NCBI GenBank assembly: GCA_964403725.1
Contig: CAYOHI010000003.1
Coordinates: forward strand, 14,374-78,373
Direction of reading: 5' to 3'
DNA length: 64,000 bases
Source: an uncultured Candidatus Saccharibacteria bacterium
GTDB taxonomy: Bacteria; Patescibacteriota; Minisyncoccia; Portnoybacterales; UBA2143
The position numbers and the translations under genes were made by a program. This document shows positions 579-36,149 of the stretch, piece after piece (the first letter of the stretch is position 1; every line of letters starts with the position of its first letter). The notes under the pieces were generated by a model, which was given only the letters and a program-made list of their open reading frames with translations, made no database searches and was not told where the DNA came from.

Positions 579-986
579 TTATCCCAGAAAATCTCCGATA
601 TCCCTTTTGAGATTCTCCAGAGACTCGTCGGTCATGATGGGCCTTTGTTCCTTTTTTAAGGGACGGAGGGGATCTGAGGAGAAGATGAGATGAATATGTA
701 GATGATCGCTGTGCGGTCCCGGTATTAGCTCCATTTTTGTGACCTTCGGGCCATACCCTCTTTCAAGCATCAGGTGTATAATGCGCCTGGCCGCCTTTTG
801 GATTCTCAGATATTTCGCCTCGCTCATCTCGAGAAATTCGCTATGAGAATCCGGTGAAATGAGGATATGCGCCGGCCTATCGCATTCCGGGTCTAAATCG
901 GGTCGAAAGCTGGTGTAAATTTTGAACCCATCGAATTTCCTCAAATAATACTTACCCTCTTCACACAAAAAACAGGGCTGTGACAT
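579..986 (-). CDS. HIT-family (histidine triad) nucleotide hydrolase/transferase
   Basis: The histidine-triad motif HLHIHLI is present. A strong Shine-Dalgarno AGGAGG precedes the start. The gene is G+C-richer than its neighbours. Confidence 0.7.
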   Translation of the reverse strand: MSQPCFLCEEGKYYLRKFDGFKIYTSFRPDLDPECDRPAHILISPDSHSEFLEMSEAKYLRIQKAARRIIHLMLERGYGPKVTKMELIPGPHSDHLHIHLIFSSDPLRPLKKEQRPIMTDESLENLKRDIGDFLG

Positions 987-1077: not shown

Positions 1078-1314
1078 TTATTCTCCCTTATGAAAGTCTA
1101 AAACCTCCTTATTAAAAGGTCCATCGTTATAGTGTGATTTGCATGGAAATTCATTGCAATCAAAACAGAATTCCATTCCTTTATTCTTAGCACATTTAGG
1201 CAAAGGACAAATATCTTCAGTGATTTTTGGAGAACATCCTTTACATTCATTGTTTATGAATTTATTGCATTTAAAGCAAGCTATACCGCAAACTCCTATT
1301 ATTTGATTGGTCAT
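1078..1314 (-). CDS. small cysteine-rich protein (DUF3795-like, putative metal-binding)
   Basis: 78 aa with 12 Cys arranged in CxxC and C-x-x-x-C pairs (CGIACFKCNKF...CKGCSP...CPLPKC...CFDCNEFPC). Its start overlaps the stop of the upstream GrpB gene (ATGA). Confidence 0.5.
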   Translation of the reverse strand: MTNQIIGVCGIACFKCNKFINNECKGCSPKITEDICPLPKCAKNKGMEFCFDCNEFPCKSHYNDGPFNKEVLDFHKGE

Positions 1315-1829
1315 ATTTCTATTCTCCTTAAAATATTATTAATAAATTTAATTTTGTTCTTATAATATTCTCTTAATGGTAAATTATTGCACTTTTGTTT
1401 TAATTTTTCATACTCTTTTAATGATTCTGGATTTTGTTTTAAATATTTTTCAAACTTAACTGAATCAAGCCAATCTTTTGATTCTTTATTAACCAAAAAT
1501 ATTTCTATCTTAATATCATCTATATATTTTACAAATCTCGCTCTTTTTAAAGAATAAACACTTCCTGGTTTTCCAAAATGACTAATTAGTATTTCTAAAT
1601 TTTTATTAAAGTCGTTTTCGATTACTGGAATATATAGATCGATTTCTCCTTGTCCTGAAATACCTAAAGCTGTAGAACCACGATGCTGTATATCTATATT
1701 GGGTAAAAATCCTTTAATTTCTTCTTTAATCTTATTAAATACCTCTTTTGTCTCTGGATTATATGGAATAATCTTTATTTTTTCAGTGCTTAGATGAGAT
1801 ATCCATTTTTCTTGGTCTTTAGTTAGCAT
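1311..1829 (-). CDS. GrpB-family nucleotidyltransferase-fold protein
   Basis: Motif HRGSTALGISGQGEIDLYIPV matches the nucleotidyltransferase GS...D.D signature of GrpB. Length is about 170 aa. Confidence 0.6.
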   Translation of the reverse strand: MLTKDQEKWISHLSTEKIKIIPYNPETKEVFNKIKEEIKGFLPNIDIQHRGSTALGISGQGEIDLYIPVIENDFNKNLEILISHFGKPGSVYSLKRARFVKYIDDIKIEIFLVNKESKDWLDSVKFEKYLKQNPESLKEYEKLKQKCNNLPLREYYKNKIKFINNILRRIEI

Positions 1830-1853
1830 ATGACATAAGAGTATATTTTATAC

Positions 1854-2429
1854 TTATTTCTTCACTAACATCTTAATAATCCCATGCTCATGTTTTCCAT
1901 CTGGACGATGATTGTCTTTAATGATCTTATCTTCTGTTTCCAAAATTATATTTTCAGAAAAATATTTCTTTAATTCTTCTACGGCAAAAAAGTGTTTTAA
2001 ATTTTTAGTTTCTTTTGAATAACTTGGATCTTTTTTAGAAAATACGGTTAAAAAGAATAATCCATCTTTTTTAAGTGATTTAATTACATTTCTTATTATT
2101 TCTCTAATATCTTTTAATTCTAAGAAATGCAAAACATTGATACAAGCTATCAAATCATATCCTTCCTTTGAAAAATTAAAATCTAAGATATTTTGATTTA
2201 AAGCATTTATTTTTGGATATTGTTTTTTAATTTCATCAATTACTTCCTTATCTGTATCTATGCAAGTTACTCTAAATCCTTGTTTATATAGAAATATACT
2301 ATTACCACCTAAACCCGTACCTAAATCTAAAATATTAGCATTTTTTGGTAATGTTTTTGCTAATGCTCTTATTTTTCCATTTACACCTTTGCCGAATTTG
2401 AGTTTGGTTATTTTTTTAAGTTTATTCAT
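1854..2429 (-). CDS. class I SAM-dependent methyltransferase (TehB-like)
   Basis: Motif I ILDLGTGLGGNS is present, and the acidic motif II CIDTD follows about 20 aa later. Length is 191 aa. Confidence 0.7.
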   Translation of the reverse strand: MNKLKKITKLKFGKGVNGKIRALAKTLPKNANILDLGTGLGGNSIFLYKQGFRVTCIDTDKEVIDEIKKQYPKINALNQNILDFNFSKEGYDLIACINVLHFLELKDIREIIRNVIKSLKKDGLFFLTVFSKKDPSYSKETKNLKHFFAVEELKKYFSENIILETEDKIIKDNHRPDGKHEHGIIKMLVKK

Positions 2430-2940
2430 TCCAATTTTTAATATATTTTTCTTTAGCTAATTTAATTAATTCCTCTCCTTTTTTACCCCAGTTAAGTTTT
2501 TCAGCTGCTTGGTCTGTTTTTATAATTACTCTGCCAATAGCTTTTTTATCTGGATCCTTTATTGGCTTGTCTATTAATTCTACTTTAGCTACTATTCTTA
2601 AGAAACAGTTTTGTTTTTTAGATTCTTTTTTGTTTGGATAATATATTTGTTCAAATCCTATTGTTTTCCAATCAATTAATTTTAATTGAGCTTCTTCAAT
2701 TAATTCTCTTTTGATTGTTGTTTCTATTGATTCTCCTTTTTCTATAGTTCCTCCTGGATTACCTAAGTATCCTTCTATATTTTTATAGAATACGATATTA
2801 TCTTTATCTAAAAAGCAGACCGCTTGAACTTGGTCTACTTTCGATAAATCACAATGATTATTTAGTGGATGTAATTCTAATTCATAATCATTGTTTTTCC
2901 ATTTTCCTTTTTCTGAGAATAGTGAGTTTTTAATATTCAT
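2422..2940 (-). CDS. Nudix hydrolase
   Basis: Nudix box GGTIEKGESIETTIKRELIEEAQL is present. The start was moved to the internal ATG at 2938-2940 (MNIKNS...) because the longer ORF overlaps the upstream phosphoesterase gene. Confidence 0.7.
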   Translation of the reverse strand: MNIKNSLFSEKGKWKNNDYELELHPLNNHCDLSKVDQVQAVCFLDKDNIVFYKNIEGYLGNPGGTIEKGESIETTIKRELIEEAQLKLIDWKTIGFEQIYYPNKKESKKQNCFLRIVAKVELIDKPIKDPDKKAIGRVIIKTDQAAEKLNWGKKGEELIKLAKEKYIKNWNE

Positions 2941-3517
2941 GTCCCTTCTGCTTGTTAAATTCAAATTCAATTTCTTTGAATTTCTTTTGTGATTCTTTAG
3001 TATTGGTCGTAATCCCGGAAAATTCAATTATTTCAGCATCATTTGTCTTTGTGTCATAAATTGCAAAGCTTGGATTGCCAGTTTTGTACGCTCCAATCTC
3101 ACCTGGATTTACAACTAAGCATTTGCCAATCTTTTCTTTATTTTTTGTATGATTATGCCCATAAAAAACCGCATCAAATTCTTTGGATTTAGCCATAGGT
3201 TTGGCTAAAATTGGAAAATGGGTTAAGAATATTTTTCTTTTATCAATTTCTATAATATCGTATGTCTCAAAACTGACTTCTAGATTACTATCCTTTTCAA
3301 GACTGAATTTAGTGATTAAGCTTTTATCTCCATCATTATTACCCCAGATTGCAAAAACAGGTATTGGCGAAGAGCATAAGAGATTAGCAATAGCAGCACC
3401 GGCAAAATCGCCTAAAAATAGGATTTTCTTGATGTTTTTATAACTATTGATTTTATCTAATGCCAGGACTAAGTTATGGGCATTATCATGGACATCAGCT
3501 ATGATTGCTATTTTCAT
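2930..3517 (-). CDS. YfcE/MJ0936-type metallophosphoesterase
   Basis: Calcineurin-like motifs IADVHDN, LGDF, GNNDGD and GHNH are present in the expected order. Confidence 0.75.
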   Translation of the reverse strand: MKIAIIADVHDNAHNLVLALDKINSYKNIKKILFLGDFAGAAIANLLCSSPIPVFAIWGNNDGDKSLITKFSLEKDSNLEVSFETYDIIEIDKRKIFLTHFPILAKPMAKSKEFDAVFYGHNHTKNKEKIGKCLVVNPGEIGAYKTGNPSFAIYDTKTNDAEIIEFSGITTNTKESQKKFKEIEFEFNKQKGHEY

Positions 3518-3531
3518 GAAACAATATTAAA

Positions 3532-3735
3532 TTAACATCTACTAGGTTTTTTTGTAACTTTATTTAAATTAGGGTAAATTGGTAGATTTAAAATTTTTTC
3601 TTCAATGGTAAAAGGCTTATCTTTTACTCTTTCATAATTTTTTTTCCTAATAATTCTTCCACTGGTAGAGATGTCATTTTTGATTATTATTCTGTATTTA
3701 TTAATTTTTGAATTTAAGTAATTTTTATTATGCAT
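3532..3735 (-). CDS. small basic hypothetical protein (67 aa)
   Basis: An ORF fills the gap between two flanking minus-strand genes. No recognisable motif. Confidence 0.25.
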   Translation of the reverse strand: MHNKNYLNSKINKYRIIIKNDISTSGRIIRKKNYERVKDKPFTIEEKILNLPIYPNLNKVTKKPSRC

Positions 3736-3757
3736 AATGTAATATATTATTTTTTAT

Positions 3758-4705
3758 TTAAGTAACACCATCTGTATCTTCATTGATATTTTCATGCTCT
3801 CCAGTTTGATCATCTTCAATCTGATTATTTTCTTCATAACAAATAAAATCTATAAAATTATCTATATTTTCTTCCATTAATAAATTAGATAACTCGCTTA
3901 TATTCATTTTATATTCCTGACTAATCGACTCTGGTTTTATGACATTTGGCAAAAACTTAGAAATAATATCATAATCAATTATATGACCGTGATCAGGACA
4001 TTCATTTACTAAATAATCAACCAATAAATTTCTTCTTTCTTTTGGTAAGTCGGAGTTAAAAATAGTTAATATTCTAGTTGCATATTTTTCACCAATATCG
4101 AGCTTTCTTTTTTTATTTCCTAGTTGATAAGGATTTATTTGTTTTAAAAGTGGTCCGTAAAATTTGTATAAATAGTCAAATATTTGCTTAGAAAGTTCTC
4201 CTCTTTTGATTCTCACTACTTTATTTTTATATAAATGATAGAACATCATTTGAAACATTTCTAATGATCTATTTTCAATTCTTTCTAATGATTTTTCATC
4301 TACCAAAGCACTTTCACGTTCATAATCAGGACTGTCTTCTCTTTCCTTAACTATTTGAACATCCAATGGGCCAAATTCACCAAAATCATCCATTATTATT
4401 TTTGAACCTCCCAAAGAGAGTAAAGTTGCAGCACTCTTTGCCCAGAAAGGAACAATAACATTAACCTTCTCAAAATTTTTCCTTAAAGTTCTGATGATTC
4501 TATATGCATCGCCAGGATCTCCTCCAGGGGAATTTATTATGAAATCAATTTCATTAACATTCTCTTTTCCGACAATAAACTCCTCAACCTTTTTCCTTAC
4601 AGTAATTACACTTTTAGGAAGTATTGGCGAAAGAAAAACAAATTGATCCTTCTCTCTAATTTCTGCGGTTTTTTTTATTTTATTTTTTAATTCTTCAATT
4701 GACAT
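3758..4705 (-). CDS. ClpP/crotonase-fold serine protease (S49 / SDH-proteinase-like)
   Basis: INSPGGDPGDAYRIIRTL...SAATLLSLGG is typical of SppA / serine-dehydrogenase-proteinase family active-site regions. Confidence 0.6.
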   Translation of the reverse strand: MSIEELKNKIKKTAEIREKDQFVFLSPILPKSVITVRKKVEEFIVGKENVNEIDFIINSPGGDPGDAYRIIRTLRKNFEKVNVIVPFWAKSAATLLSLGGSKIIMDDFGEFGPLDVQIVKEREDSPDYERESALVDEKSLERIENRSLEMFQMMFYHLYKNKVVRIKRGELSKQIFDYLYKFYGPLLKQINPYQLGNKKRKLDIGEKYATRILTIFNSDLPKERRNLLVDYLVNECPDHGHIIDYDIISKFLPNVIKPESISQEYKMNISELSNLLMEENIDNFIDFICYEENNQIEDDQTGEHENINEDTDGVT

Positions 4706-4772
4706 TATTCAATGTTAAAAAGTTAAAAGATTTCGATAAATTAGATATATGAGACAGGATTAATCTTCATAG

Positions 4773-4843
4773 TACCCCGCAAGGGAATCGAACCCCTATC
4801 AATTGGTTAAAAGCCAACTGCTCTACCACTGAGCTAGCGGGGC
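4773..4843 (-). tRNA. tRNA-Lys (anticodon UUU)
   Basis: The complement reads GCCCCGC-TA-GCTC-AGTGGTA-GAGC-A-GTTGG-CTTTTAA-CCAAT-...-TTCGATT-...-GCGGGGT-A. This is a cloverleaf with a TTCGATT T-loop and anticodon-loop CU-UUU-AA. No CCA is encoded. Confidence 0.8.
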
Positions 4844-4919
4844 ATGAGTACTTAAAATATTCTAACCTTATTCAAAATAAAAATCAAGCTAAAAACAAGC
4901 TTGATTGTCTCCACCCACC

Positions 4920-5474
4920 CTATTTCTTCCCATCCACCATCTTTTTCTTTCTCATCAATACCAAAACTAGAATTGGCAATGTAATCCAGATAAATTGAGC
5001 TTCAGGACCGATCAACAGCATCCTAATTACTGATCCTAAATTAGCTACTGCATCCTGAGGCAGAAACGAAAGAATAACCATGGCTAGTAAACCAACTTGA
5101 GCCACTGCCAATAGGAGTAATTGCCACCAAGATGCCAATCCCCTTTTTCTTAATCTAAATGTTGAAGTTAAAATTGATCTAGGAATTAGGAAATAGAATA
5201 AGAGGATAATTCCTAAAAAAAGAATTGTTTTCAAAGAAGATGATGGGTTTTGCTCAACTCCCAGCCAGCCAACTGAACTCAATTTCCACCAAGGAATTTT
5301 TTGAACAATTAAAAGTGAAAAATAGCTGCTAATAAGAAGGACTATCATTCTATTTCTTCCTAAGAACAATCCATAGACCAAAACAGCGACTAAGAAAACT
5401 ACGCCAATAAAAATATCCCAACCGGATGCATTGCCGATATTGAAACTGGATAAAAATGAATATATGGCAGCCAT
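4920..5474 (-). CDS. integral membrane protein (CvpA-like?)
   Basis: Four to five hydrophobic helices in a 184-aa protein. Weak resemblance to colicin-V-production CvpA topology. Confidence 0.4.
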   Translation of the reverse strand: MAAIYSFLSSFNIGNASGWDIFIGVVFLVAVLVYGLFLGRNRMIVLLISSYFSLLIVQKIPWWKLSSVGWLGVEQNPSSSLKTILFLGIILLFYFLIPRSILTSTFRLRKRGLASWWQLLLLAVAQVGLLAMVILSFLPQDAVANLGSVIRMLLIGPEAQFIWITLPILVLVLMRKKKMVDGKK

Positions 5475-6557
5475 TTAACTATTCTGTAATTCTTTAATTA
5501 ATTTTTTTTGTTGACGAGTCAATTTCTTTGGAACTTCAACTTGGATTTTAACAATTAAATCACCTTTTCCTCTGCTATACAGGCTAGGCATTCCCTTGTC
5601 TTTTAATTTTATCATACTCCCTGGCTGAGTTCCAGCAGGGATCTTTAATTTAACTTCACCCTCTAAAGTTGGTATCTGTATTTTATCACCTAATGTAGCT
5701 TGAGTGAAATTAATTGTTAAATCATATACTAAATTATCACTTATTCTTTCAAATTCCTTATGAGGCTTAACATGAATGTTTACAAACAGATCTCCAGCTT
5801 CTCCGCCATGTTTTCCTGCCTCACCCTGTCCATTCATCTTTAAAGTCTGGCCATCTTCAATTCCTTTAGGAACTTTAACTTTAATTTTGCTATCTTTTTT
5901 AATTCTTCCTTGACCATCACATTCTTTACATATCTTTTCTGGAATTTCTCCTCTGCCATGGCATTCTTCACAGATTCTTCTCTGGAATATCATTCCTAAA
6001 ATACTATTGTTTTGAACTTGCTGGTAGCCAGATCCGCCACAAATAGAACAAGTCTTTAATTTATCCCCTCCCTTGCCCTGACATTTATCGCAAGTAACTA
6101 ATTTTCTTAAATCAACTTCCTTTTCAAGCCCGTTATATACATCTTCTAAATTAATATTTAAATCAATAACAATATCTTGGCCATAAGAGTTAGCTTTTCT
6201 GGCCCTGCCGCCAAACATCTGTTCAAAAATACGTCCAAAGCCTAAATCTTCAAAAATATCTTCTCCGCCAAAAGCATCTTGGAAATGACTGAAATCTTGC
6301 TGTGAAAATCCCCTGCCGCCAAATCCTTGATTGTCAAAAGTCTGGCCAAATTGGTCATACTGGCTTTTCTTTTCCTTATCAGAAAGAACAGTGTAAGCTT
6401 CACTGATCTTTTTAAACTTCTCTTCGTATTCTTTCTTCTTATTCTCCGGTGCCTTATCCGGATGATATTTAAGCGCCAGTTTCCTATATGCTTTTTTAAT
6501 TTCAGAATCAGAAGCGTTCTCAGGCACTCCCAGTGTCTCGTAATATTCTTTAGCCAT
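5475..6557 (-). CDS. dnaJ: chaperone DnaJ
   Basis: J-domain with HPD (YHPDKAP), a G/F-rich linker, and four CxxCxGxG zinc-finger repeats ([32 protein letters not shown]). Confidence 0.95.
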
Positions 6558-12167: not shown

Positions 12168-13370
12168 ATGAAAAAAGTCAATACAAAAAGCGCTTTAAAT
12201 TTCTTGTTAATTCTAGTCCTGATTAGGCCTTCTTTGGATATTTTAAATAGATATGAGATTATTCCTTTTTTCAATTTTAGTACTTTGATTGGCGGATTAG
12301 TTTTCCTTATTGCTGCTTTCCTTTTGTTAAGAAATATTAAGAAAACTTATACTATTCCCCTATTCTATCCTATTCTAATATTCTTAATATTAGGATTTGT
12401 CAGTATTTTTTATTCAGTTAGCTATTCAGACAGCGTCAGGGAACTTATTAGGTTAACTAGTATTTTTGTATTGTATTTCTTGGCTTATAGGCTGGTTGAA
12501 AGCAAAGAAGATTTCTATCTATTATTAAAAGCTATTCTTTTCAGCTATATCATTCCTGCTTTAGTGGCTCTTATTCAATTGATTGGGGGCTGGGGCCTGC
12601 CTGATGACTTTGGCGGTTTTTTAAGGATTTATGGAACATTTGCCCATCCTAATCTTTTCGCCTTCTATACGTTCTTTGTCTTGGCCCTGACTCTTTCCTT
12701 ATTACTAGCCAAAAAGGAAGAAGTCAGATCATGGATTAGTAAGAATCCATATTTCTTGCCTGTTATTGGCATTACTTTGCTATTAGTCTTTACCTATACT
12801 AGAAGTGCTTTAGCATGCTTCTTTATCTTTATCCTCTTCTTTGGAATCTTTAAATACAGAAAACTGTTAATTTTTGGTTCTGTTTTCTTGATTCTATTGT
12901 ATTTTTCTTCTGAAATCTTTAGAGAAAGATTATTGGAATTATTCAGCCTGGATCCATATGGCTCAATTGTCTGGCGTTTTAGGCTTTGGAAAGACATGTT
13001 GCCAATGTTTTTATGGCAACCCTTATTCGGTCATGGACTAGGGACTTTCACTTATCTGGTTGAGTTTTACAGAGGATTCCAGTTTGGAAGCTTGGATCCG
13101 CATAATGACTATTTGAAAATATTGGTTGAAAACGGGATTGCCGGATTAATTTCATTCTTATCCATAGTTACTGGATTGTTGTTTTATCTCTGGAAAATAT
13201 TCAAAAAATCTTTAAACAAGGAAAAAATCCTTGGCTTGGGATTCTTAGTTATTGTCTTGAGCCTACTGATCGCTGGCAGCTTTGATAATATCTTAAGGAC
13301 CACTGCTCTGCAATGGAATCTATGGATTCTCTTAGGAGGTTGGCTGAAGATTAATAAATTTGGGAATTAA
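12168..13370 (+). CDS. O-antigen ligase / Wzy-like polymerase family membrane protein
   Basis: About 10 TM helices with a loop carrying YTRSALA. A large periplasmic loop with conserved H/R residues follows, as in Wzy_C proteins. Confidence 0.6.
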   Translation: MKKVNTKSALNFLLILVLIRPSLDILNRYEIIPFFNFSTLIGGLVFLIAAFLLLRNIKKTYTIPLFYPILIFLILGFVSIFYSVSYSDSVRELIRLTSIFVLYFLAYRLVESKEDFYLLLKAILFSYIIPALVALIQLIGGWGLPDDFGGFLRIYGTFAHPNLFAFYTFFVLALTLSLLLAKKEEVRSWISKNPYFLPVIGITLLLVFTYTRSALACFFIFILFFGIFKYRKLLIFGSVFLILLYFSSEIFRERLLELFSLDPYGSIVWRFRLWKDMLPMFLWQPLFGHGLGTFTYLVEFYRGFQFGSLDPHNDYLKILVENGIAGLISFLSIVTGLLFYLWKIFKKSLNKEKILGLGFLVIVLSLLIAGSFDNILRTTALQWNLWILLGGWLKINKFGN

Positions 13371-13371
13371 A

Positions 13372-13446
13372 AAAGCCCGAACTGGTTGTGTAACATGTTG
13401 CATTGTTTGCGTGTTTACAGTTACTTGCCCAGAACGGGCTCTTTTT
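13372..13446. terminator. bidirectional terminator region with nested hairpins
   Basis: The outer stem AGCCCGAACTGG / CCAGAACGGGCT encloses an inner GTAAC...GTTAC stem. It is flanked by an A-run on one side and a T-run on the other, between convergent genes. Confidence 0.45.
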
Positions 13447-13475
13447 ATATTTTAAATCCTCCTACCTCCTTTTTT

Positions 13476-14297
13476 TTATTTCTGCATATCGTAGCTTTTG
13501 GGGACCGTTCTCATCTCTCCCGTTTCGGTGTTTAACAGCCCTTCATAGGCCGGGTATCCCTCGACGTCCGGCGAGATCGGTTCGCTTTTCCGCATGTGCT
13601 TGTCCGCTTGGTTGATCCAACCAGGCTCGTCGAGAAGATTGTTGTACGTCCAGCCCCTGAACCAAATCCAGGGATTTTTCTTCTCGGGAAGTCTTACGAT
13701 GACTTCCAGTGATCCATCGGCGGTTTGCTGGCGGGTTACTCCGTTGGAGTAATTATCTCCCGTCGGAATAATGGGAATCCAGCTCTTACTATCAGTCCAG
13801 TGGATCCCGAAGAAAGACGTGAAGTTGTCCGGGTTTCCCCTGGAGATGTAATAGGGCATTTTGAACACCCCTTCTCCCCTTTGGACTTTCACGAGCTCAA
13901 ACGGCCCGGAGAAGCCTCCTGCTTCCGGCAGAACGATCCTCCCTTCATCGGGAGGAGGTTCCGATTCGAGGGCCATTGCTTCTGCTTCGGCATCGTGTTG
14001 TTCCACGCCCGCGGCGGCAAAAGAAGCATGTGCCGATGATAATGCCACACTAAACGCTTCTGAAGGAATCGCTCCTGCTGCCGCTGCTGCTTGAGCAGAT
14101 GAAAAAGCCGCTTCCATGGCTGCTTCTTTTTGAGCTTCTGTGGGATCCACAAAACTTTCCAAAGCACTCAAGTAACCGCTATTGGCAGCCGTCTGAATTT
14201 GCTCCGGACCCATTTCATCTTTTGTTTCCAACATCGCACACCCGCTCAGGAAAAATAGAGCGAGAACCCCTGCCAGTGAAAATCTTAACCATTTCAT
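13476..14297 (-). CDS. lipoprotein, Ala-rich (G+C-rich island gene 4)
   Basis: Signal peptide with lipobox MKWLRFSLAGVLALFFLSGC. SD GGAGGT is about 9 nt upstream of the ATG at 14295-14297. G+C is much higher than in flanking genes. Confidence 0.6.
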   Translation of the reverse strand: MKWLRFSLAGVLALFFLSGCAMLETKDEMGPEQIQTAANSGYLSALESFVDPTEAQKEAAMEAAFSSAQAAAAAGAIPSEAFSVALSSAHASFAAAGVEQHDAEAEAMALESEPPPDEGRIVLPEAGGFSGPFELVKVQRGEGVFKMPYYISRGNPDNFTSFFGIHWTDSKSWIPIIPTGDNYSNGVTRQQTADGSLEVIVRLPEKKNPWIWFRGWTYNNLLDEPGWINQADKHMRKSEPISPDVEGYPAYEGLLNTETGEMRTVPKSYDMQK

Positions 14298-14513
14298 CTT
14301 TCTATACCTCCACTTGTTGTAGTTACTAGTTAAAAGATATATATTTCTCAACAGAAACTATGTTTCCGGTAGAATCTCATATGACTTTGCCTATTATCCC
14401 AAACTTTTCATAAGCCATTTTGGCCTTTCCCGACATCTTGTCAAAGAACAGTTGGTGCCCATCTTGGGACTAATAATACACATTTTGTGTAAAATTATCA
14501 ACTGAAGAAAGCA

Positions 14514-15944
14514 TTAAGGACAATCTATGCAAAAGTCTTTCTTTGTTGGCGCAGTGATTTGCGAGGACCTATATGCCTTTATCAGTCCGCTGACCGATAA
14601 ATATCCAGAGATCCAGTGCCATTGGTCTCCATCTCCGCCCAAATTCTCTTTGTAATTCAGAGGAGAGACGGATAAGATATCCTCACCGTGCCAAGCCATG
14701 GTCAAACGAGGTCCGAATTGGATAAAATCCGGAGACTCTAAACCGTTTTCGTTGATATATGCCAAATTGACGCCAGGCGTCAACAGTAGGTTATCAGAGA
14801 TCTCAAAGTCATAGATATGCTGAGTTAAAGTAATCTCTAAGACCTGGTTGTTGTGCGGGTCAGGATCCAGAGGATTGCCATCCCAACTATGTTCATGTTT
14901 CTGATTGCTGGGTAAGGTAAACTCAACATTGAGTTCGGTCTTGGAAAACCCCTTTTCGCCTTGGACACGGCGATCATAGAGATTCACATGTGCCGAGGCT
15001 ACGAGAAGATCATCAGTCTGCTTGCTTCTGTACAGATTGATCTTCCCTTTGCTGACTTGTCTTCCCCAGCCTAAGTCAATGTCCATGTCCCAGTTGTCCT
15101 TGTGGCCGATTAACTTGAGCGACGGCCCGACAACGCCTTTCCACCAGTCATACAGATAATCTTCATCGTCTCCACCGCCGGTGGCGCCGAATCCGAATAC
15201 ACCCAGACAGGCAGAAATACGGTCAGTCACGTTGAATCCGAAAGGCCGAGCACGACCCTTGATCCAAGCGTACCAACCGTCATGGTAGTAATCCTTGTTG
15301 TTCGAGTTCATCCAGCGGTCGGTCTCGTAGATTCCGCCGCCAGTATAAAGGTCCAGACCACAGCTCTTCTTTTTCTTGAGCGCAGCTCCAGTCTCTTTGT
15401 ACCTCGGTACCGGTGGTAATACCGCCGCCTTAACCTTTGCTGGCTTCGGGAACGGGTTTTTCTTGTAGCGAAATCTCGGTACCGGCGGATATTCGGCAGC
15501 CGGTTTTGACTTCTTCCTGATTGCCCAGTTACCGCAGACAAGCGGGTACCAGAGTTCATACTCGTCATCGATGTCATAAACTCTGGCCATGACAGTCTTG
15601 TCAAAACCGACAACAATCGGCTCGTCTTGCCAAATCTTGTAGTTGCCGAAAATCATCTTTTCAAAGGTATCCCCGGTTTCAATCTGTCCCCACCGGGAAT
15701 TTCTGATTCGATGATTAGCGATGATTTCTTTTGCCTTCGTTTTGTCGAGACCAAGACGAATTAACGCCTTATAGTCTCGTCTCAGCTGTTGAGGTGAATA
15801 GAACTCCGGAGATTTCCGGAAGGAATTTCTTCCAGGCTCTTGCCAAATGCGTGCCTCTGCCGCGGAAGCGACAGAGAGCAACAGGATAATTAGCATACCT
15901 ACTGCTCGTTTCATCTGTCGCCTCCTTTGTTTTGCGATTTTCAT
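14514..15944 (-). CDS. large secreted protein of unknown function (island gene 3)
   Basis: N-terminal signal peptide (MKRAVGMLIILLLSVASAAEA). The C-terminal half is rich in G/D/N/W/Y, with alternating patterns reminiscent of beta-rich surface proteins. An alternative start at M11 (15914) is possible. Confidence 0.5.
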   Translation of the reverse strand: MKIAKQRRRQMKRAVGMLIILLLSVASAAEARIWQEPGRNSFRKSPEFYSPQQLRRDYKALIRLGLDKTKAKEIIANHRIRNSRWGQIETGDTFEKMIFGNYKIWQDEPIVVGFDKTVMARVYDIDDEYELWYPLVCGNWAIRKKSKPAAEYPPVPRFRYKKNPFPKPAKVKAAVLPPVPRYKETGAALKKKKSCGLDLYTGGGIYETDRWMNSNNKDYYHDGWYAWIKGRARPFGFNVTDRISACLGVFGFGATGGGDDEDYLYDWWKGVVGPSLKLIGHKDNWDMDIDLGWGRQVSKGKINLYRSKQTDDLLVASAHVNLYDRRVQGEKGFSKTELNVEFTLPSNQKHEHSWDGNPLDPDPHNNQVLEITLTQHIYDFEISDNLLLTPGVNLAYINENGLESPDFIQFGPRLTMAWHGEDILSVSPLNYKENLGGDGDQWHWISGYLSVSGLIKAYRSSQITAPTKKDFCIDCP

Positions 15945-16814
15945 CTATATCCTTACAAGCCTTCCGGCTTCAAGTTCCGTCCTAAAGACGGCTTCATCTT
16001 TTTTCAGAACGCCACCACTAGCTTTGGCTGCATCCTTGGCCTTTTCGTACAACACCCCCTTATACAAGGAAATAAACATACTGTCATCATCATTCCTTTG
16101 AGGAGTATAACGATAGGATTGGCCTTTGATCTTGAGCGGAAATGATTCTTGTACAGGTGATTGGACGTTCGGTTGAACTGTCGGCGGCGCTTGAACTTGA
16201 ATCTGATTATGATTATTCCCTCTCAGTGACCTGAGAAGAATAATGATTACGATAACCATTATCAAGGCAAATACAGCGCCTCCGATCATGAAGTACTTCA
16301 TGATTCTGTTTTCGGTCTGGTTGATTCTGGTCAGAAGATTATCACTACCCTTTTGGACCTGCCGCCTTAAACTAGCCTCGGTATCCTTTACTGCTGCCGC
16401 AACTTCTTGCTGGCCGTTTTGGATAGCGCGACCCGTGTCCTGAATAGTTCTGGTAGTTTGATATTGGCTGCTTTGGATAACACGACTCGTATCCTGAGCA
16501 GCTTGGCGTTGGCCAGAAATGATTTGTGCAGATTTCTCTGCTAAAACATCCCTAACCTCGGGTTGGATGTAATAGACGATTTCCTTGCCTTTCGGCAGGA
16601 TTCGCCAGTTTTTATTGATCCAAGGGTTCCACTCATGAATTTCCTTGGGTGAAGCCCCACAGAGTTTTCTAATCACGAGATAGATGTCACCAAGGGTCTC
16701 CCCTTTGGCGATAATATGGATTTTTCTCTCCCCTTCAGTTTGAGCGCTGACAAAGGGGCTAAGAGTTAACGTCAAAACACACGCTATTGCCAATATGATC
16801 GATGTTGCCTTCAT
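15945..16814 (-). CDS. LysM-domain membrane protein (island gene 2)
   Basis: Signal peptide MKATSIILAIACVLTL, then a LysM domain (HIIAKGETLGDIYLVIRKLCGASPKEIHEWNPWINKNWRILPKGKEIVYY). QDTxRxIQ repeats and one TM helix follow. The start was moved to the M preceded by GGAGGAGGA. Confidence 0.65.
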   Translation of the reverse strand: MKATSIILAIACVLTLTLSPFVSAQTEGERKIHIIAKGETLGDIYLVIRKLCGASPKEIHEWNPWINKNWRILPKGKEIVYYIQPEVRDVLAEKSAQIISGQRQAAQDTSRVIQSSQYQTTRTIQDTGRAIQNGQQEVAAAVKDTEASLRRQVQKGSDNLLTRINQTENRIMKYFMIGGAVFALIMVIVIIILLRSLRGNNHNQIQVQAPPTVQPNVQSPVQESFPLKIKGQSYRYTPQRNDDDSMFISLYKGVLYEKAKDAAKASGGVLKKDEAVFRTELEAGRLVRI

Positions 16815-16876
16815 TATTCCTCCTCCCCATCTTGGGATCTTCTCATCTTGAGGACTAATCATCCATCTTGGAGTAA

Positions 16877-17908
16877 TCAGTCTTTGAAAAGAAATAATTG
16901 GAATTTAAGCTCGTTGATGAGCTCTTGTTGTTTCAAAATTCGTTCATCGCGGTTTTTCAGAAGTTTCTTGTAGATCAGCACCATTTGCCTAAACAAAGGT
17001 GCTATTCGATAACGCAAAACCTCGGCCCGAGCAAAAGAGCCCGTCCAGCTGTCATCAACCCCGGCAACGATAGCATCGCTAGCCAGACTGACACCAGCTG
17101 AAGCCAAAAGCCCAATACCACTAAGCGGTAAGGCAATCAGCGGAACCTTGGCCCGTTTGAGGTAACGATCAACTCCGTTGAATCCGGGAATTTCAACCGC
17201 TGCCTTTTTAAACATCTCCAAAGGAAGAACGCCGCATCTGATTTCTCCATTGCCCATCTTGTAGTTATGAGGCATGATTCTGGACACCTTGTCCTTGTAA
17301 TCAAGCCAATCATCAGACGGAATGGAAATTTCCAGCATGCTGGACAAGTCAGTTGGCGGTTCAAGTCCCTTGTCTTTTAAATAATCGTGCCAGAATTGAT
17401 CGATTTGACTGATCATTTGGCCGTGATTATCAAAAAGAGACTTCCGATAGTCGTGGTTTTTGTCGAATTCTTTGGGATCATACTCAATCTGTTTCCCAAG
17501 AGGCGTGTAGGCAAACCCTGCATCTCTGTTGAAATACAGAATCTTGCCGCCTTGGATGTCCTTATAGGGACCCATGAAAACAAATTGAATCTGCCAGTCT
17601 CCCCAATAGGTAACGCTTGTCAAAAAAGCATCGCCGCTGAGGATCTCGCCGTAGGTGGTTTGGACCAAAAAAGACCATACTCCGCCGGCGTTTATGACCT
17701 CTACCCAAAGTCCAGGCTCCAATAACCCCTGGAAGGTTACAAATTTCTTAATTCCAGCTTTCTCAAGCTCGACCGGATGAAGGATTGATATCCCATCAGC
17801 CGGATCAAGGCGCGTATGTCCCGATATTTCTTTTGGAATATACTTATTGGGATTACTCGCGCATCCGATTAACAATAAGACGAATATCATTGCCAGTTTT
17901 TCTTTCAT
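16877..17908 (-). CDS. lipoprotein (island gene 1)
   Basis: Lipobox in MIFVLLLIGCAS. SD GAGGTG upstream. Higher G+C than flanking genes. Confidence 0.55.
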   Translation of the reverse strand: MKEKLAMIFVLLLIGCASNPNKYIPKEISGHTRLDPADGISILHPVELEKAGIKKFVTFQGLLEPGLWVEVINAGGVWSFLVQTTYGEILSGDAFLTSVTYWGDWQIQFVFMGPYKDIQGGKILYFNRDAGFAYTPLGKQIEYDPKEFDKNHDYRKSLFDNHGQMISQIDQFWHDYLKDKGLEPPTDLSSMLEISIPSDDWLDYKDKVSRIMPHNYKMGNGEIRCGVLPLEMFKKAAVEIPGFNGVDRYLKRAKVPLIALPLSGIGLLASAGVSLASDAIVAGVDDSWTGSFARAEVLRYRIAPLFRQMVLIYKKLLKNRDERILKQQELINELKFQLFLFKD

Positions 17909-18003
17909 TACTCACCTCTCTGTGTTTTTGTTTATCTTAGATTTCTAAGCCATTTCGGCTGTTTAGTTATTTAATTGACAAAGATCCTCTTAAAGCCTCC
18001 CTT

Positions 18004-18708
18004 TTACATAGAAACTTCGTTTCTATCCAAAGAGGAAGCTCCCTCATTATACCTGTAATCTTCCTTCATAGGAAGACTTTCAGGACTCTTGTCCTGAATC
18101 TTATCTTTCTTTATAAAAATCCAAGCTAAACTAATCAAAAACCCGAACAAAGCACCTAATAGGGTGCCTAGCCAGATATTAATAGTAACTGGATTTTGTG
18201 TAACTAAAGGCTTATCAATTACCTTAACTTCCACATTTTGGCCGCCACCATGGTAAAAGCCATGGTTTTTCTCTAAAGTCTTGGTAATAGCCCAGCTGAT
18301 TTGCTCAGCTTTTTCCTTTTCTGAATGCAAAACATCAATTTCCATGATTCCTAAATCACGGACAATAGATACTTTAACATCCTTTTTCCATTGTTTTCGT
18401 CTTTCTTTGGATTGGTTTGGAAAATCGCCTTCTTCAATCTTGTATCCTGATTTCAAGACACTTTCAAAGAAGATGTCTGAATAAACACCTTCTTGTAGGA
18501 TTTTTGTCAGATACTGGGCTGATTTTGAAACAGTATATATATCTTGACCGGAAGTCTGGTTCTGAACGACCAGTATTTTTGAGCTAGCCTTGTATTTCGG
18601 CTCTTGAATTACAGTCAGGTCGAAAAATAAAACTGCCCCCAAGACAGTTATCCAGAAAATTAACCATTTTTTCTGGTAAATTAATTTAATTGTTTGCTTT
18701 AAATCCAT
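18004..18708 (-). CDS. Wzz/chain-length-determinant-like (PCP family) protein
   Basis: An N-terminal TM helix, a roughly 150-aa extracytoplasmic domain and a C-terminal TM helix (WLGTLLGALFGFLISLAWIFI), as in the CpsC/YveK/Wzz topology. Its position beside the glycosyltransferases supports a polysaccharide role. Confidence 0.55.
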   Translation of the reverse strand: MDLKQTIKLIYQKKWLIFWITVLGAVLFFDLTVIQEPKYKASSKILVVQNQTSGQDIYTVSKSAQYLTKILQEGVYSDIFFESVLKSGYKIEEGDFPNQSKERRKQWKKDVKVSIVRDLGIMEIDVLHSEKEKAEQISWAITKTLEKNHGFYHGGGQNVEVKVIDKPLVTQNPVTINIWLGTLLGALFGFLISLAWIFIKKDKIQDKSPESLPMKEDYRYNEGASSLDRNEVSM

Positions 18709-18884
18709 TTATATAATTAAAAAGCCTGTCATTACAGGCAGCCATATACTACCAGAAATATATACTTTTTGTCAAGGGTTTTTTAAAGATGAATATACTC
18801 TGGACAAAAAATATTAAGCGTGCTATCGTAATCCCATCTTAAAAGATAATAAAGCTTCCTTAAAAATATGACATGGAGGGCATT

Positions 18885-19403
18885 ATGAAAACCTTTAGGT
18901 TTTTCTTGTTGACAGTTGTTTTCTTACTCTGGGCTTGTGAAAAGCCTGAGTTTGATCAGTTTTTAACCAGGCTTCAGGATCAGGGTTTTTCGACCAAAGT
19001 TGTTGAGATGATTGTCGGAGAAACAATCCCTGATGAGAAGAAAATTTCTTTCAGTCTTGACGGCGTAGATACCGCCAATATCTTTAAGCTCACCGGATAT
19101 CAGAACTTCCCTGTTTTGAAACTCCCTCTCGATGACGGGAATCCTGATTCTAATCTGGTAATTTTTAAAGATCTATGCGGCCGGGAAATGTACCTGGTTA
19201 AAACTGACAACGGCCAACGCAACGGCAAAATTACACACACTGTCAAGGTCAAAACCCAGTTTGTCATGTACATTGAAGAAATCCACAAAAGACTGGCTTT
19301 CGGTACCGATGTGGTTGCCAGCTACCCATCGGATGCCTGGAAGAAGATTGAATTCGATGATTTTGTTTTCATCGTCTTCATGCACAAACGCGAGAAAGCC
19401 TAA
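18885..19403 (+). CDS. secreted hypothetical protein (possible lipoprotein)
   Basis: Signal-like N-terminus MKTFRFFLLTVVFLLWAC. SD GGAGGG lies 5 nt upstream of the ATG at 18885. The ORF track's first ATG (18873) is inside the SD. Confidence 0.5.
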   Translation: MKTFRFFLLTVVFLLWACEKPEFDQFLTRLQDQGFSTKVVEMIVGETIPDEKKISFSLDGVDTANIFKLTGYQNFPVLKLPLDDGNPDSNLVIFKDLCGREMYLVKTDNGQRNGKITHTVKVKTQFVMYIEEIHKRLAFGTDVVASYPSDAWKKIEFDDFVFIVFMHKREKA

Positions 19404-22323: not shown

Positions 22324-23274
22324 TTAATTATCTAAAATAACTTCTGCCTTTATTTCTAAAATACATATTTCTGAAGGGAAAATAAGCCCTTCTCCAGAGT
22401 TTTCAATACAGCGATCCTGGATAGAGATAATATCATAAAGAGAAATTTTCACCTGATTATTAAACTGTTCATAATTGCTTGGAAATACCATAATTTCAGT
22501 ATTTTTATTTCTTTCAATATCTCCAATCTTCGAAAAATTCTCGTCATTAATATACCCAATGACATATACTTCTTGATTGGATATCTTCTGTATTTCAAAC
22601 ATATAACTCCAAGCAAAAAAGTTTCTTTGACTACCATCAAATTTTAATCTTTCAATTCTTTCATCATTAACTGCACGTGATATATTACTATAACCGACAT
22701 AACCATATATTTCATCTGGCAATAAATTCAAAGATTCCTGAACTTCTAAAGATCTCACTAATCTTAAGTTATTATTTACAATCTCTGGTTTATCTGGTAC
22801 TCCTCCGTTATTTAAGGAATAAAAATAATAACCTATAGCAAAGCTAATTACTCCAGAGATGATTATCCCCAAAAAAGCTATAATCCACGGATTTTTCAGA
22901 AAATCAACTAGTTTACTAGTTCCTCTAAATAAATTCTTGGGTACATCTATTTTTTCATTTTCATCATAGACCTTAGTATATTTTTTACCATTATATCTCA
23001 CTTCAATAAACAATTTTTTTCTAACACGTTTAAACTCATCTGGAAATATATTATTGTAAATACCATCATAAAACAAAGTATTTCCGCTTATATTCTCAGA
23101 TAATTCCCTAGTTACATCTGTACCTTTGTTATCTAAATAACCTATTTTAGGATCATAATAAAAAGCTCTTACAAGCCTTAGACCTTTGGCAAATATAACA
23201 TATGATATTAACCAAATAATTAAAGCAGAACCTATTTCAACTACCCAAGAATTCATCATTATTTCTTTAAACAT
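22324..23274 (-). CDS. hypothetical membrane protein (2 TM)
   Basis: Two hydrophobic segments at about 10-30 and 135-155. No motif recognised. Confidence 0.4.
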   Translation of the reverse strand: MFKEIMMNSWVVEIGSALIIWLISYVIFAKGLRLVRAFYYDPKIGYLDNKGTDVTRELSENISGNTLFYDGIYNNIFPDEFKRVRKKLFIEVRYNGKKYTKVYDENEKIDVPKNLFRGTSKLVDFLKNPWIIAFLGIIISGVISFAIGYYFYSLNNGGVPDKPEIVNNNLRLVRSLEVQESLNLLPDEIYGYVGYSNISRAVNDERIERLKFDGSQRNFFAWSYMFEIQKISNQEVYVIGYINDENFSKIGDIERNKNTEIMVFPSNYEQFNNQVKISLYDIISIQDRCIENSGEGLIFPSEICILEIKAEVILDN

Positions 23275-35459: not shown

Positions 35460-36149
35460 TCAAGTCCGATTATCTTTTTGTAAAAAAACAAATACTCCTA
35501 ATATGATAATTAAACCAATCCATTGGCTAGAAGTCAAGTTTAGGTATCTTGGATCCCCATATCTAAAGAATTCCAAGAAAAATCTTGAAATACTGTAATA
35601 TGTTAAAAATATCAAAAAAAGATATCCTGGTTTTTGAAATCTATCCCTTAAAAACCACAATATTAAAAACAAAATCAAGCCATTGACGGATAAATATAAA
35701 GCTACAGGATGACGTACTATTCCATCAGGCCATAAAATACCCCAAGGCAGATTAGTAATAGTTCCTGGATGATCTTTAATGAAAAAACAGCCCATTCGGC
35801 CGAAAAATATTCCCAGAGCCACGCTTGGCGCGAATAAATCTGCTAATTTTAAGAATTCTTTCTTATTTCTCAAATAATATAGACCTATCAAAACAGCACC
35901 GAATAATCCTCCATAGAACATAAAGCCATGGATTTCAAAAAACAACAAAGAGAATAAACGGGCAAACACAATACTGAATAAGAATATTAGAACAGTTAAG
36001 ATTAAAATTTTGTTTTCTTCAATTCCCTTTTTCTTTCCTTTAAATAGGGCTAATAAGTATCCAAGGAAAAAACCGAGGCCTACCATTAAGCCCCAGGTAT
36101 ATATGGTAATTGACCCTAAATTAAATTGGGTAAACGTGAAATATGGCAT
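35460..36149 (-). CDS. lgt: prolipoprotein diacylglyceryl transferase
   Basis: Seven TM helices. Lgt signature region FFGRMGCFFIKDHPG. N-terminal ...YTWGLMVGLGFFLG. Confidence 0.8.
   Translation of the reverse strand: MPYFTFTQFNLGSITIYTWGLMVGLGFFLGYLLALFKGKKKGIEENKILILTVLIFLFSIVFARLFSLLFFEIHGFMFYGGLFGAVLIGLYYLRNKKEFLKLADLFAPSVALGIFFGRMGCFFIKDHPGTITNLPWGILWPDGIVRHPVALYLSVNGLILFLILWFLRDRFQKPGYLFLIFLTYYSISRFFLEFFRYGDPRYLNLTSSQWIGLIIILGVFVFLQKDNRT

Follow-up and report, generated by a model that had tools for sequence, protein, structure and literature searches.

Is a G+C-rich block of genes for secreted proteins in the middle of a surface-glycan locus foreign DNA, an assembly artefact or a native part of that locus? 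We address this question for a 64,000-nucleotide stretch from an uncultured Candidatus Saccharibacteria bacterium (assembly GCA_964403725.1, contig CAYOHI010000003.1, positions 14,374 to 78,373; hereafter the window), in which four adjacent genes at 13476-17908, named D, C, B and A in the order of the coordinates (Table 1), lie between a Wzy-like and a Wzz-like gene. A first-pass annotation, made from the letters alone, read them as a horizontally acquired cassette splitting the glycan locus, or as a chimera. We favour a different reading, to which we assign a probability of roughly 0.6: a native four-gene envelope cassette with a fixed position in a surface-glycan locus of a family of ultra-small Candidate Phyla Radiation (CPR, Patescibacteria) bacteria, whose products may form an envelope assembly and whose alleles may be exchanged among relatives.

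The composition step itself is real. The G+C content of 13476-17908 is 46.8%, against 35.9% in the remainder and 36.7% over the whole window, and this is the highest value among all 4.4-kb segments (mean 36.9%, standard deviation 3.3%). A 200-bp G+C profile rises at about 13.4 kb and falls at about 17.9 kb. G+C at third codon positions (GC3) is 0.46-0.54 in the four genes and 0.26-0.41 in the neighbouring genes, placing A to D among the seven highest-GC3 genes of the 64 open reading frames (ORFs) of the window. Sliding-window G+C and GC3 thus bear out the abrupt change that the first-pass annotation had described at both borders. Its account of four co-directional, packed genes between Wzy-like and Wzz-like neighbours is equally borne out by four minus-strand ORFs and by the flanking PF04932 and PF02706 matches, and signal peptides or lipoboxes establish all four products as predicted exported proteins.

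Conservation of the cassette in CPR genomes

Every relative that retains both flanks carries the cassette in the order Wzz-A-(B)-C-D-Wzy. This synteny extends over more than ten CPR lineages in independent JGI, ENA and NCBI assemblies. The full order is DnaB-CysS-CorA-GrpE-HSP20-DnaK-Wzz-A-B-C-D-Wzy (opposite strand)-rSAM-GT4-DUF4012-GT4-x-DnaJ in L002, L003, L004-L007, L008 and L018, where rSAM denotes radical SAM, and 15 further metagenome loci show it wherever the flanks are kept. B is absent from the L030/L031/L032 lineage, which has the order A-C-D. A frameshift or sequencing error divides A of L028 (about 4695-5634) between two ORFs, of 90 and 255 aa. An apparent deletion of D in L007 was rejected, as a run of N masks the region.

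Homologues of C are rare: nine clusters were found at first, and 13 with a profile of its predicted barrel, out of 5.8 billion. The genome scan for A used an alignment of 11 sequences. The genomes belong to the CPR, as indicated by their DUF4012 and DUF5671 proteins; metagenome-assembled genomes with the cassette bear the name Candidatus Saccharibacteria, and one homologue is labelled Candidatus Portnoybacteria. Genomes that have the cassette include GCA_964556655.1, GCA_964510185.1 and GCA_023261605.1, and JGI 3300009374 and 3300014656 are among the source samples.

A separately assembled JGI contig of 52 kb (3300009374) matches window positions 4514-25944 (21.4 kb) at 100% identity, across both borders of the G+C step, and encodes the exact C protein. 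Since relatives across independent assemblies carry the same genes at the same site, the cassette is neither a chimera nor a recent insertion, and both proposals of the first-pass annotation are contradicted. That relatives carry the same genes with similar composition had been named beforehand as the observation that would speak against an island, and this is what we find.

More distant relatives have a different gene order in the same kind of locus, with A 26-31% identical and the C barrel about 29% identical. The order is B-like, A, C, Wzz, D-like, x, Wzy, GT4 in L014/L015; B, A, C, Wzz, D-like, rSAM, Wzy, three GT4, DUF4012 in L016/L017; and Wzz-like, x, A, C in L012/L013. Even in distant relatives, A, B and C remain neighbours of Wzz, Wzy_C and GT4 genes, which argues that the cassette belongs to the locus.

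G+C excess and divergence of the cassette

In each of the AT-rich relatives the four cassette genes are richer in G+C than their flanks, and the metagenome loci show the same offset. GC3 is 0.12-0.21 in the flanks and 0.28-0.40 in the cassette of L004; in L028 the flanks have 0.14-0.19, and A, B, C and D have 0.30, 0.27, 0.32 and 0.53. Within the cassette, GC3 peaks in D in most of the lineages examined. The offset is smaller in the G+C-richer relative L018 and has disappeared in L014 and L016.

We computed the GC3 expected if the flank codon usage of each genome applied to the cassette amino acids, excluding Met and Trp. Observed and expected values are 0.488 and 0.325 for the window, and 0.403 and 0.208, 0.403 and 0.340, 0.298 and 0.135, and 0.280 and 0.176 for four others. 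Amino-acid composition was accordingly rejected as the cause of the high GC3. Nearly all codon families are shifted in the cassette, including the purine-ending ones. Codon bias due to high expression was also rejected, because neither DnaK nor ribosomal protein S2 shows elevated values, and codons ending in G rise along with those ending in C.

A single ancient import that is still ameliorating appears unlikely, because the flanks have re-equilibrated to very different GC3 among lineages (0.13-0.44). Polarised counts of four-fold-site substitutions, which bear on a decaying import versus a maintained G+C, weakly suggest a similar balance in cassette and flanks; these counts are small and biased by parsimony.

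The cassette is also less conserved than its surroundings. Among six lineages, protein identities are 44-64% for A, 40-57% for C, 26-47% for B and 25-44% for D, against 48-85% for flank proteins, and a comparison of four lineages gave similar values. At depth, the pairwise identities of A and C track those of the flanks (Spearman 0.84 and 0.74), and in close pairs the nearest neighbours by cassette are the nearest neighbours by flanks.

Close pairs locate the limits of the divergent region. Nucleotide identity is 80-95% in the flanks and 77-90% in the cassette for L004/L022, and 80-87% and 65-74% for L004/L028. For L008/L030, the flanks are 84-90% identical, A and C are about 68% identical, and B and D cannot be aligned; the aligned stretch stops where the Wzz-A spacer ends and is taken up again at the Wzy 3' end. 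At four-fold sites of conserved codons, this pair differs by 48-62% in the cassette and by 15-33% in the flanks. Such differences are 61% in A, 58% in B and 43% in C, with 26-45% in the flanks, for L020/L028, and are equal in cassette and flanks for L020/L022. Divergence is concentrated in the cassette, and the limits of this hot spot fall at the G+C step.

These patterns suggest that the cassette is occasionally replaced by diverged alleles of related lineages. Allele replacement is the simplest reading because positive selection alone would leave synonymous divergence unaffected, and a mutation rate raised uniformly would affect all pairs alike. Hot-spot divergence among close pairs, together with the sharp borders, is compatible with allele exchange inside the family and not with a foreign origin. 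Replacement of alleles through conserved flanks is known behaviour of surface-antigen loci, and recombining bacterial genes tend toward higher GC3.

In the pair L004 and L007, which are the same species from different samples, divergence is mosaic. DnaB, CysS and Wzy differ by 9%, 4% and 2.75%, and most other genes, the cassette included, are identical, a pattern suggesting that the flanks contain tracts of recent recombination.

Encoded proteins and a possible envelope assembly

Proteins A and D carry the lipoboxes LIGC and LSGC that had been proposed for them, and a gene for Lgt is present in the window. Both agree with the pattern [LVI][ASTVI][GAS]C (A has MKEKLAMIFVLLLIGC, D has MKWLRFSLAGVLALFFLSGC), as read directly from the translations. 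The fold of A is confidently modelled: a beta-sandwich and helical ectodomain is followed by a hydrophobic helix at about residues 258-285 and a long basic amphipathic C-terminal helix. A has no solved relative in the PDB, and searches of PDB sequences with family profiles gave no match for A or D.

The more likely start of D is the ATG at 14297, for a product of 273 aa. In it, an Ala/Ser/Glu-rich insertion of about 95 aa, specific to the window copy, accompanies a conserved W-rich domain about 140 aa long. Identity between the window copy and its orthologues is 25-32%, and the closest pair shares 70%. The lipobox is found in the window copy and L008 only; D in general is predicted to be a small secreted protein or lipoprotein.

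B probably begins with a signal peptide starting from Met17. A Q/T-rich coiled-coil region with the repeats QDTSRVIQ, QTTRTIQ and QDTGRAIQ, very variable in length among relatives, precedes a single membrane helix; the conserved C-terminal domain, about 65 aa long, is predicted to be cytoplasmic. The first-pass description of a LysM membrane protein with QDTxRxIQ repeats holds for the repeats; the LysM domain of the window copy falls below the Pfam threshold, with no match to PF01476 even at E <= 10, and that of its orthologues lies above it (22.1-32.9 bits, cut-off 20.9). The B-family profile aligns with the LysM region of the C family (hhalign 95.7%, E 1e-8) and matches solved LysM domains in the PDB (LytN and MltD, E 7e-5), identifying window B as a predicted degenerate LysM member.

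C was correctly recognised as a 476-aa signal-peptide protein with a beta-rich C-terminal half (466 aa from the second Met). The signal peptide (..SAAEA/RI) is followed by an N-terminal domain of about 120 aa, a Pro-rich PPVPxF/Y linker, a predicted barrel spanning roughly residues 197-450, and a CxxC-containing tail of about 25 aa. Orthologues have one or two N-terminal LysM domains. The window copy and P0002 lack them, and window C has lost its LysM. A repeat search returned only the internal PPVP linker repeat of C and two copies of an intergenic motif.

The conserved C-terminal 260 aa of C are modelled as 12 long antiparallel strands with a predicted local distance difference test score (pLDDT) of 60-88. 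The strands have an alternating hydrophobic face (mean Kyte-Doolittle hydropathy +0.88 vs -0.96). A Foldseek search with the model retrieved Hbp (E 3e-7) and BrkA (target-normalised TM-score 0.64), and OmpM1 weakly (E 5e-4). Sequence similarity to barrel families was absent from Pfam and PDB-sequence profile searches, including any match to Autotransporter (PF03797) or IAT_beta, and PDB-sequence searches with the C- and B-family profiles returned LysM only. We consider it probable that C forms a genuine membrane barrel.

The close homologues of C, six of the eight sequences aligned, terminate in a conserved CxxC(L/P) motif (window 14514-14540), and P0006 ends in CCN. Most of the close homologues also have conserved cysteines just before and within the first barrel strands, and disulfides between these residues could staple the tail to the barrel. 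The C-terminal motif is absent from the more distant P0008, P0009 and L008.

The predicted barrel resembles the 12-stranded beta-domains of type Va autotransporters (BrkA, Hbp, AIDA-I, EspP and NalP). C differs from these in having no large passenger (the N-terminal part has about 160 aa, or about 250 aa with LysM in relatives), a linker made of the Pro-rich PPVPxF/Y repeat instead of an alpha-helical plug, and a tail of about 25 aa ending in CxxC(L/P) without a terminal beta-signal. Type Ve inverse autotransporters (intimin and invasin) combine LysM with a 12-stranded barrel, and C resembles their N-terminal half in architecture. C has neither an IAT_beta match nor a C-terminal passenger, only about 25 aa following the barrel, and falls outside this class. 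A beta-barrel assembly machinery (BAM) is not known from CPR bacteria.

Another parallel in architecture is offered by the OmpM/SlpA- and OmpA-type tethers. The C proteins of relatives follow the same logic of signal peptide, peptidoglycan-binding LysM, linker and predicted barrel. Binding in the C family is through LysM and not through SLH or OmpA_C, and window C lacks even this domain; a Pfam scan of A to D and their orthologues found no SLH domain. OmpM of diderm Terrabacteria joins an SLH domain to a barrel (bioRxiv 10.1101/2021.05.31.446380). The barrel of C has about 12 strands and is autotransporter-like, shares no sequence homology with OmpM, and belongs to a lineage considered monoderm.

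At the level of the locus, the cassette behaves like variable surface-antigen glycan loci and S-layer glycosylation clusters. It is fixed between conserved anchors, has an atypical composition and an abrupt drop of identity at its borders, varies in the presence of member genes, and places a Wzy_C gene beside genes for surface proteins. Its variable unit consists of four envelope proteins instead of sugar-pathway genes and is enriched in G+C, whereas variable O-antigen and capsule loci are usually enriched in A+T. S-layer glycosylation clusters have a gene for a Wzy_C-family O-oligosaccharyltransferase next to the S-layer gene; glycosylation of A to D is a speculation.

In the native assembly that we propose, A and B would be anchored in the cytoplasmic membrane, exposing their ectodomains and keeping short tails on the inner side. 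Peptidoglycan would be bound through LysM by B and, in most relatives, by C as well. C would form a 12-stranded beta-barrel serving as a pore or anchor in an outer layer of the envelope, and D would be a peripheral surface subunit. Bitopic A and B, the LysM modules, the barrel and a peripheral subunit, encoded beside Wzz and Wzy_C, suggest that A to D may form a peptidoglycan-anchored assembly cooperating with the Wzz/Wzy_C glycan pathway. This assembly could be an outer export or anchoring device, or a protein acceptor of the glycan; the latter is conceivable because the Wzy_C family includes O-oligosaccharyltransferases. Surface exposure would place the assembly under diversifying pressure, and alleles of relatives would be swapped in by recombination within the conserved Wzz and Wzy flanks. 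Such exchange, possibly with GC-biased gene conversion, would hold the G+C of the cassette above that of an AT-drifting backbone.

The CPR cell envelope is little known, and CPR bacteria are generally scored as monoderm in debates on the evolution of outer membranes. The cassette provides concrete candidate genes for their outermost envelope layer or for a cell-cell interface. That a monoderm CPR family makes a genuine 12-stranded barrel tethered by LysM (in cis in most members, via B in trans here), together with a lipoprotein of new fold, is a doubtful proposition in its entirety. If true, it would imply an unrecognised outer lipid layer, barrel insertion independent of BAM, or a barrel delivered into the membrane of a partner cell, and recombination would, in addition, be exchanging the module as a hypervariable locus and thereby keeping its G+C above that of the genome. 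We describe the cassette as a CPR envelope module of uncharacterised proteins, hypervariable and persistently enriched in G+C, with a predicted barrel of the outer-membrane type and a putative function.

Several observations weigh against the native assembly with allele exchange. The model of C was built on an alignment of nine sequences and has an overall pLDDT of 52; the alternation in its strands is modest (period-2 z = 2.2); and the chain extends about 25 aa past the last barrel strand, where BAM substrates normally carry an aromatic beta-signal. CPR bacteria are described as monoderm (PMC8871954; bioRxiv 10.1101/2021.05.31.446380), leaving the barrel without an obvious home membrane. The families of A to D have no characterised member in Pfam, NCBIfam, PHROG, PADLOC or PDB-sequence searches; scans of the four proteins against the first four collections gave nothing meaningful, with weak coiled-coil noise for B alone. 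Co-regulation by itself could explain why the cassette is linked to the glycan genes. Between L004 and L007 the cassette has just 0-1 differences, and the recombination or biased-conversion account of the G+C offset is itself inferred, the polarised counts being parsimony-biased.

The alternatives differ in how well they account for the same evidence. A recent acquisition from a compositionally foreign donor into a contiguous glycan locus would explain why the G+C step is so sharp at the gene borders, as in a classical genomic island, and why the four proteins have no annotated families. It is nevertheless very improbable. An island should be absent from the same site in relatives; the cassette lies between Wzz and Wzy wherever these flanks exist, across lineages whose DnaK proteins are merely 76-85% identical, and A and C co-diverge with the flanks. 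No integrase or tRNA target occurs at the borders (the nearest tRNA is at 4772), the repeat search found no flanking direct repeats, island-typical cargo is absent, and viral-contig scans with A and C, a plasmid DNA search and PHROGs yielded no relatives. The family occurs only in metagenome-assembled genomes that are labelled CPR or unlabelled. What survives of the horizontally acquired surface cassette is its exported, surface-type proteins and a plausible exchange among close relatives, without the foreign insertion. An assembly or binning chimera, in which a higher-GC fragment was joined into an AT-rich contig, would account for the composition step alone and has practically no chance of being correct, given the identical JGI contig, the same junctions in many other samples and assemblers, and borders that are normal intergenic regions with Shine-Dalgarno sequences, promoter-like sites and terminator-like hairpins. 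The cassette may also be native but strictly vertical, its G+C kept up by selection on the coding sequence (for instance through rare codons ending in G or C that delay the translation of exported proteins, or through an mRNA property) and its divergence due to ordinary positive selection on surface proteins without exchange of alleles. The offset in all AT-rich relatives, which scales with host G+C, the agreement of nearest neighbours between cassette and flanks and the elevated GC3 (0.51) of an unrelated orphan lipoprotein next door all fit this history, as does, weakly, the similar substitution balance from the polarised counts. We consider it unlikely, since the cassette shows roughly twice the four-fold differences of the flanks in some pairs and the same level in others, nucleotide identity steps abruptly at the borders, and the two genomes of one close pair differ in whether they have B. 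Moreover, other exported proteins of the window (DUF4012, Wzz and YceG), like DnaK and ribosomal protein S2, are not elevated in G+C.

A different role is conceivable for the same genes, namely chiefly a device by which an epibiotic CPR cell attaches to or feeds on a host or partner, an attachment role that the first-pass annotation had raised. LysM would then bind the peptidoglycan of the partner, the C barrel would enter the partner membrane and not the envelope of the producer, and the glycan linkage would be incidental. LysM binds peptidoglycan or chitin, hypervariability is expected of an interaction interface, and a barrel without an obvious home membrane fits a monoderm cell. Cultured CPR representatives are epibionts (PMC8080830). 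The membrane anchors and predicted cytoplasmic tails of A and B speak instead for a resident envelope complex, and the tight linkage to Wzz and Wzy persists over deep divergence. Furthermore, secreted pore-formers with a single-chain 12-stranded barrel are not known. We judge this role improbable as the chief one. With the native, exchanged cassette as the preferred reading, the locus illustrates how a composition island with uncharacterised secreted proteins can mimic textbook horizontal transfer until relatives reveal a native locus. Odd composition and sharp borders are here long-lived traits of the locus, which lends itself to the study of recombination or biased gene conversion in AT-rich reduced genomes.

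Flanking genes, spacer elements and other atypical genes

The features of the locus are listed in Table 1. Wzy_C adjoins the cassette in all relatives with flanks, and Wzz adjoins A or C in all relatives, the distant ones included. Farther from the cassette, a Pfam scan identified radical-SAM, two GT4 and DUF4012 genes. Wzy_C, Wzz, two GT4, radical SAM and DUF4012 are thus clustered as in a Wzx/Wzy-type glycan locus, and the set is kept in relatives.

Table 1. Positions of the cassette genes, their anchors and the intergenic elements in the window
Feature	Positions	Strand	Description
Wzy_C	12168-13370	+	O-antigen-ligase-like membrane protein; PF04932, E 6.4e-19; convergent with D; conserved right-hand anchor
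D/Wzy intergenic region	13371-13475		Between convergent genes; lower border of G+C step and divergence hot spot
D	13476-14297	-	273-aa lipoprotein, lipobox LSGC (FFLSGC/AM); ORF 13476-14351
C-D intergenic region	14298-14513	-	Promoter-like TTGACA-N16-CAAAAT (14444-14417)
C	14514-15944	-	476 aa; predicted barrel protein
B	15945-16862	-	305 aa; degenerate LysM, coiled coil, membrane helix, C-terminal domain
A	16877-17908	-	343-aa lipoprotein, lipobox LIGC (LLLIGC/AS)
Wzz-A intergenic region	17909-18003	-	Upper border of G+C step and divergence hot spot
Wzz	18004-18708	-	Chain-length-determinant-like protein; PF02706, E 4.7e-7; directly upstream of A; conserved left-hand anchor
Promoter-like site and hairpin	18724-18775	-	TTGACA-N18-TAGTAT (with TG), then hairpin GCCTGTAATGACAGGC and T-run; just upstream of Wzz start codon
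Lgt	35460-36149		PF01790, E 4e-44

The intergenic region between D and Wzy holds a GAGCCCG...CGGGCT inverted repeat followed by a T-run, a possible two-way terminator, and relatives have GC-rich hairpins here. The C-D spacer contains three short palindromes, CCCAAGATGGG, GACAAGATGTC and GCCAAAATGGC, with similar arrays at the same position in relatives. In the Wzz-A spacer, the palindrome AGCCGAAATGGCT (17942-17959) has counterparts in relatives and is accompanied by the Shine-Dalgarno sequence GAGAGGTGAG.

Palindromes of the form xxCCAA-N1-3-TTGGxx or GACAAnnTGTC number three to four in the C-D spacer (14352-14513), with a single one in the Wzz-A spacer (17909-18003). They recur in both equivalent spacers of L002, L003, L004 and L008, though these spacers are otherwise unalignable. 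The 18-mer GCCRAAATGGCTTAKRAA occurs in the window only at 14407-14424 and 17942-17959. The palindromes may be operators or RNA hairpins controlling A and D; consensus folding of the C-D spacer yielded a single 7-bp hairpin.

The TTGACA element upstream of Wzz is present in all five lineages read, and the window, L002, L004 and L008 also have the hairpin with its T-run (the sequence read for L003 ended short of the hairpin). This strong promoter-like site is a candidate start of a Wzz-A-B-C transcript, and the hairpin could act as a 5' stabiliser or attenuator.

Other genes of the window also depart from its average composition. A 135-aa protein with a histidine-triad-like motif HLHIHLI (579-986, minus strand; no Pfam match) is encoded at 46.6% G+C and GC3 0.54, as G+C-rich as the cassette. 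The orphan lipoprotein mentioned above (176 aa, lipobox LWAC; 18873-19403, plus strand) is encoded on the opposite strand, between the DnaK and Wzz genes. It lacks both a family match and a homologue in any of the related loci, and as a lineage-specific acquisition it is a more convincing candidate than the cassette. Between CorA and GrpE lies an AT-rich gene for a 316-aa membrane protein (22324-23274, minus strand; 27.9% G+C, GC3 0.20). Relatives have no such gene there, and their CorA and GrpE genes are adjacent. Finally, a five-gene block at 1311-4705 (minus strand), which includes a protein of the SDH_protease family and abuts tRNA-Lys at 4772-4843, has 24-32% G+C and GC3 0.15-0.27. Relatives have different genes after the DnaJ-hypY pair, and the block may be a genuine AT-rich island.

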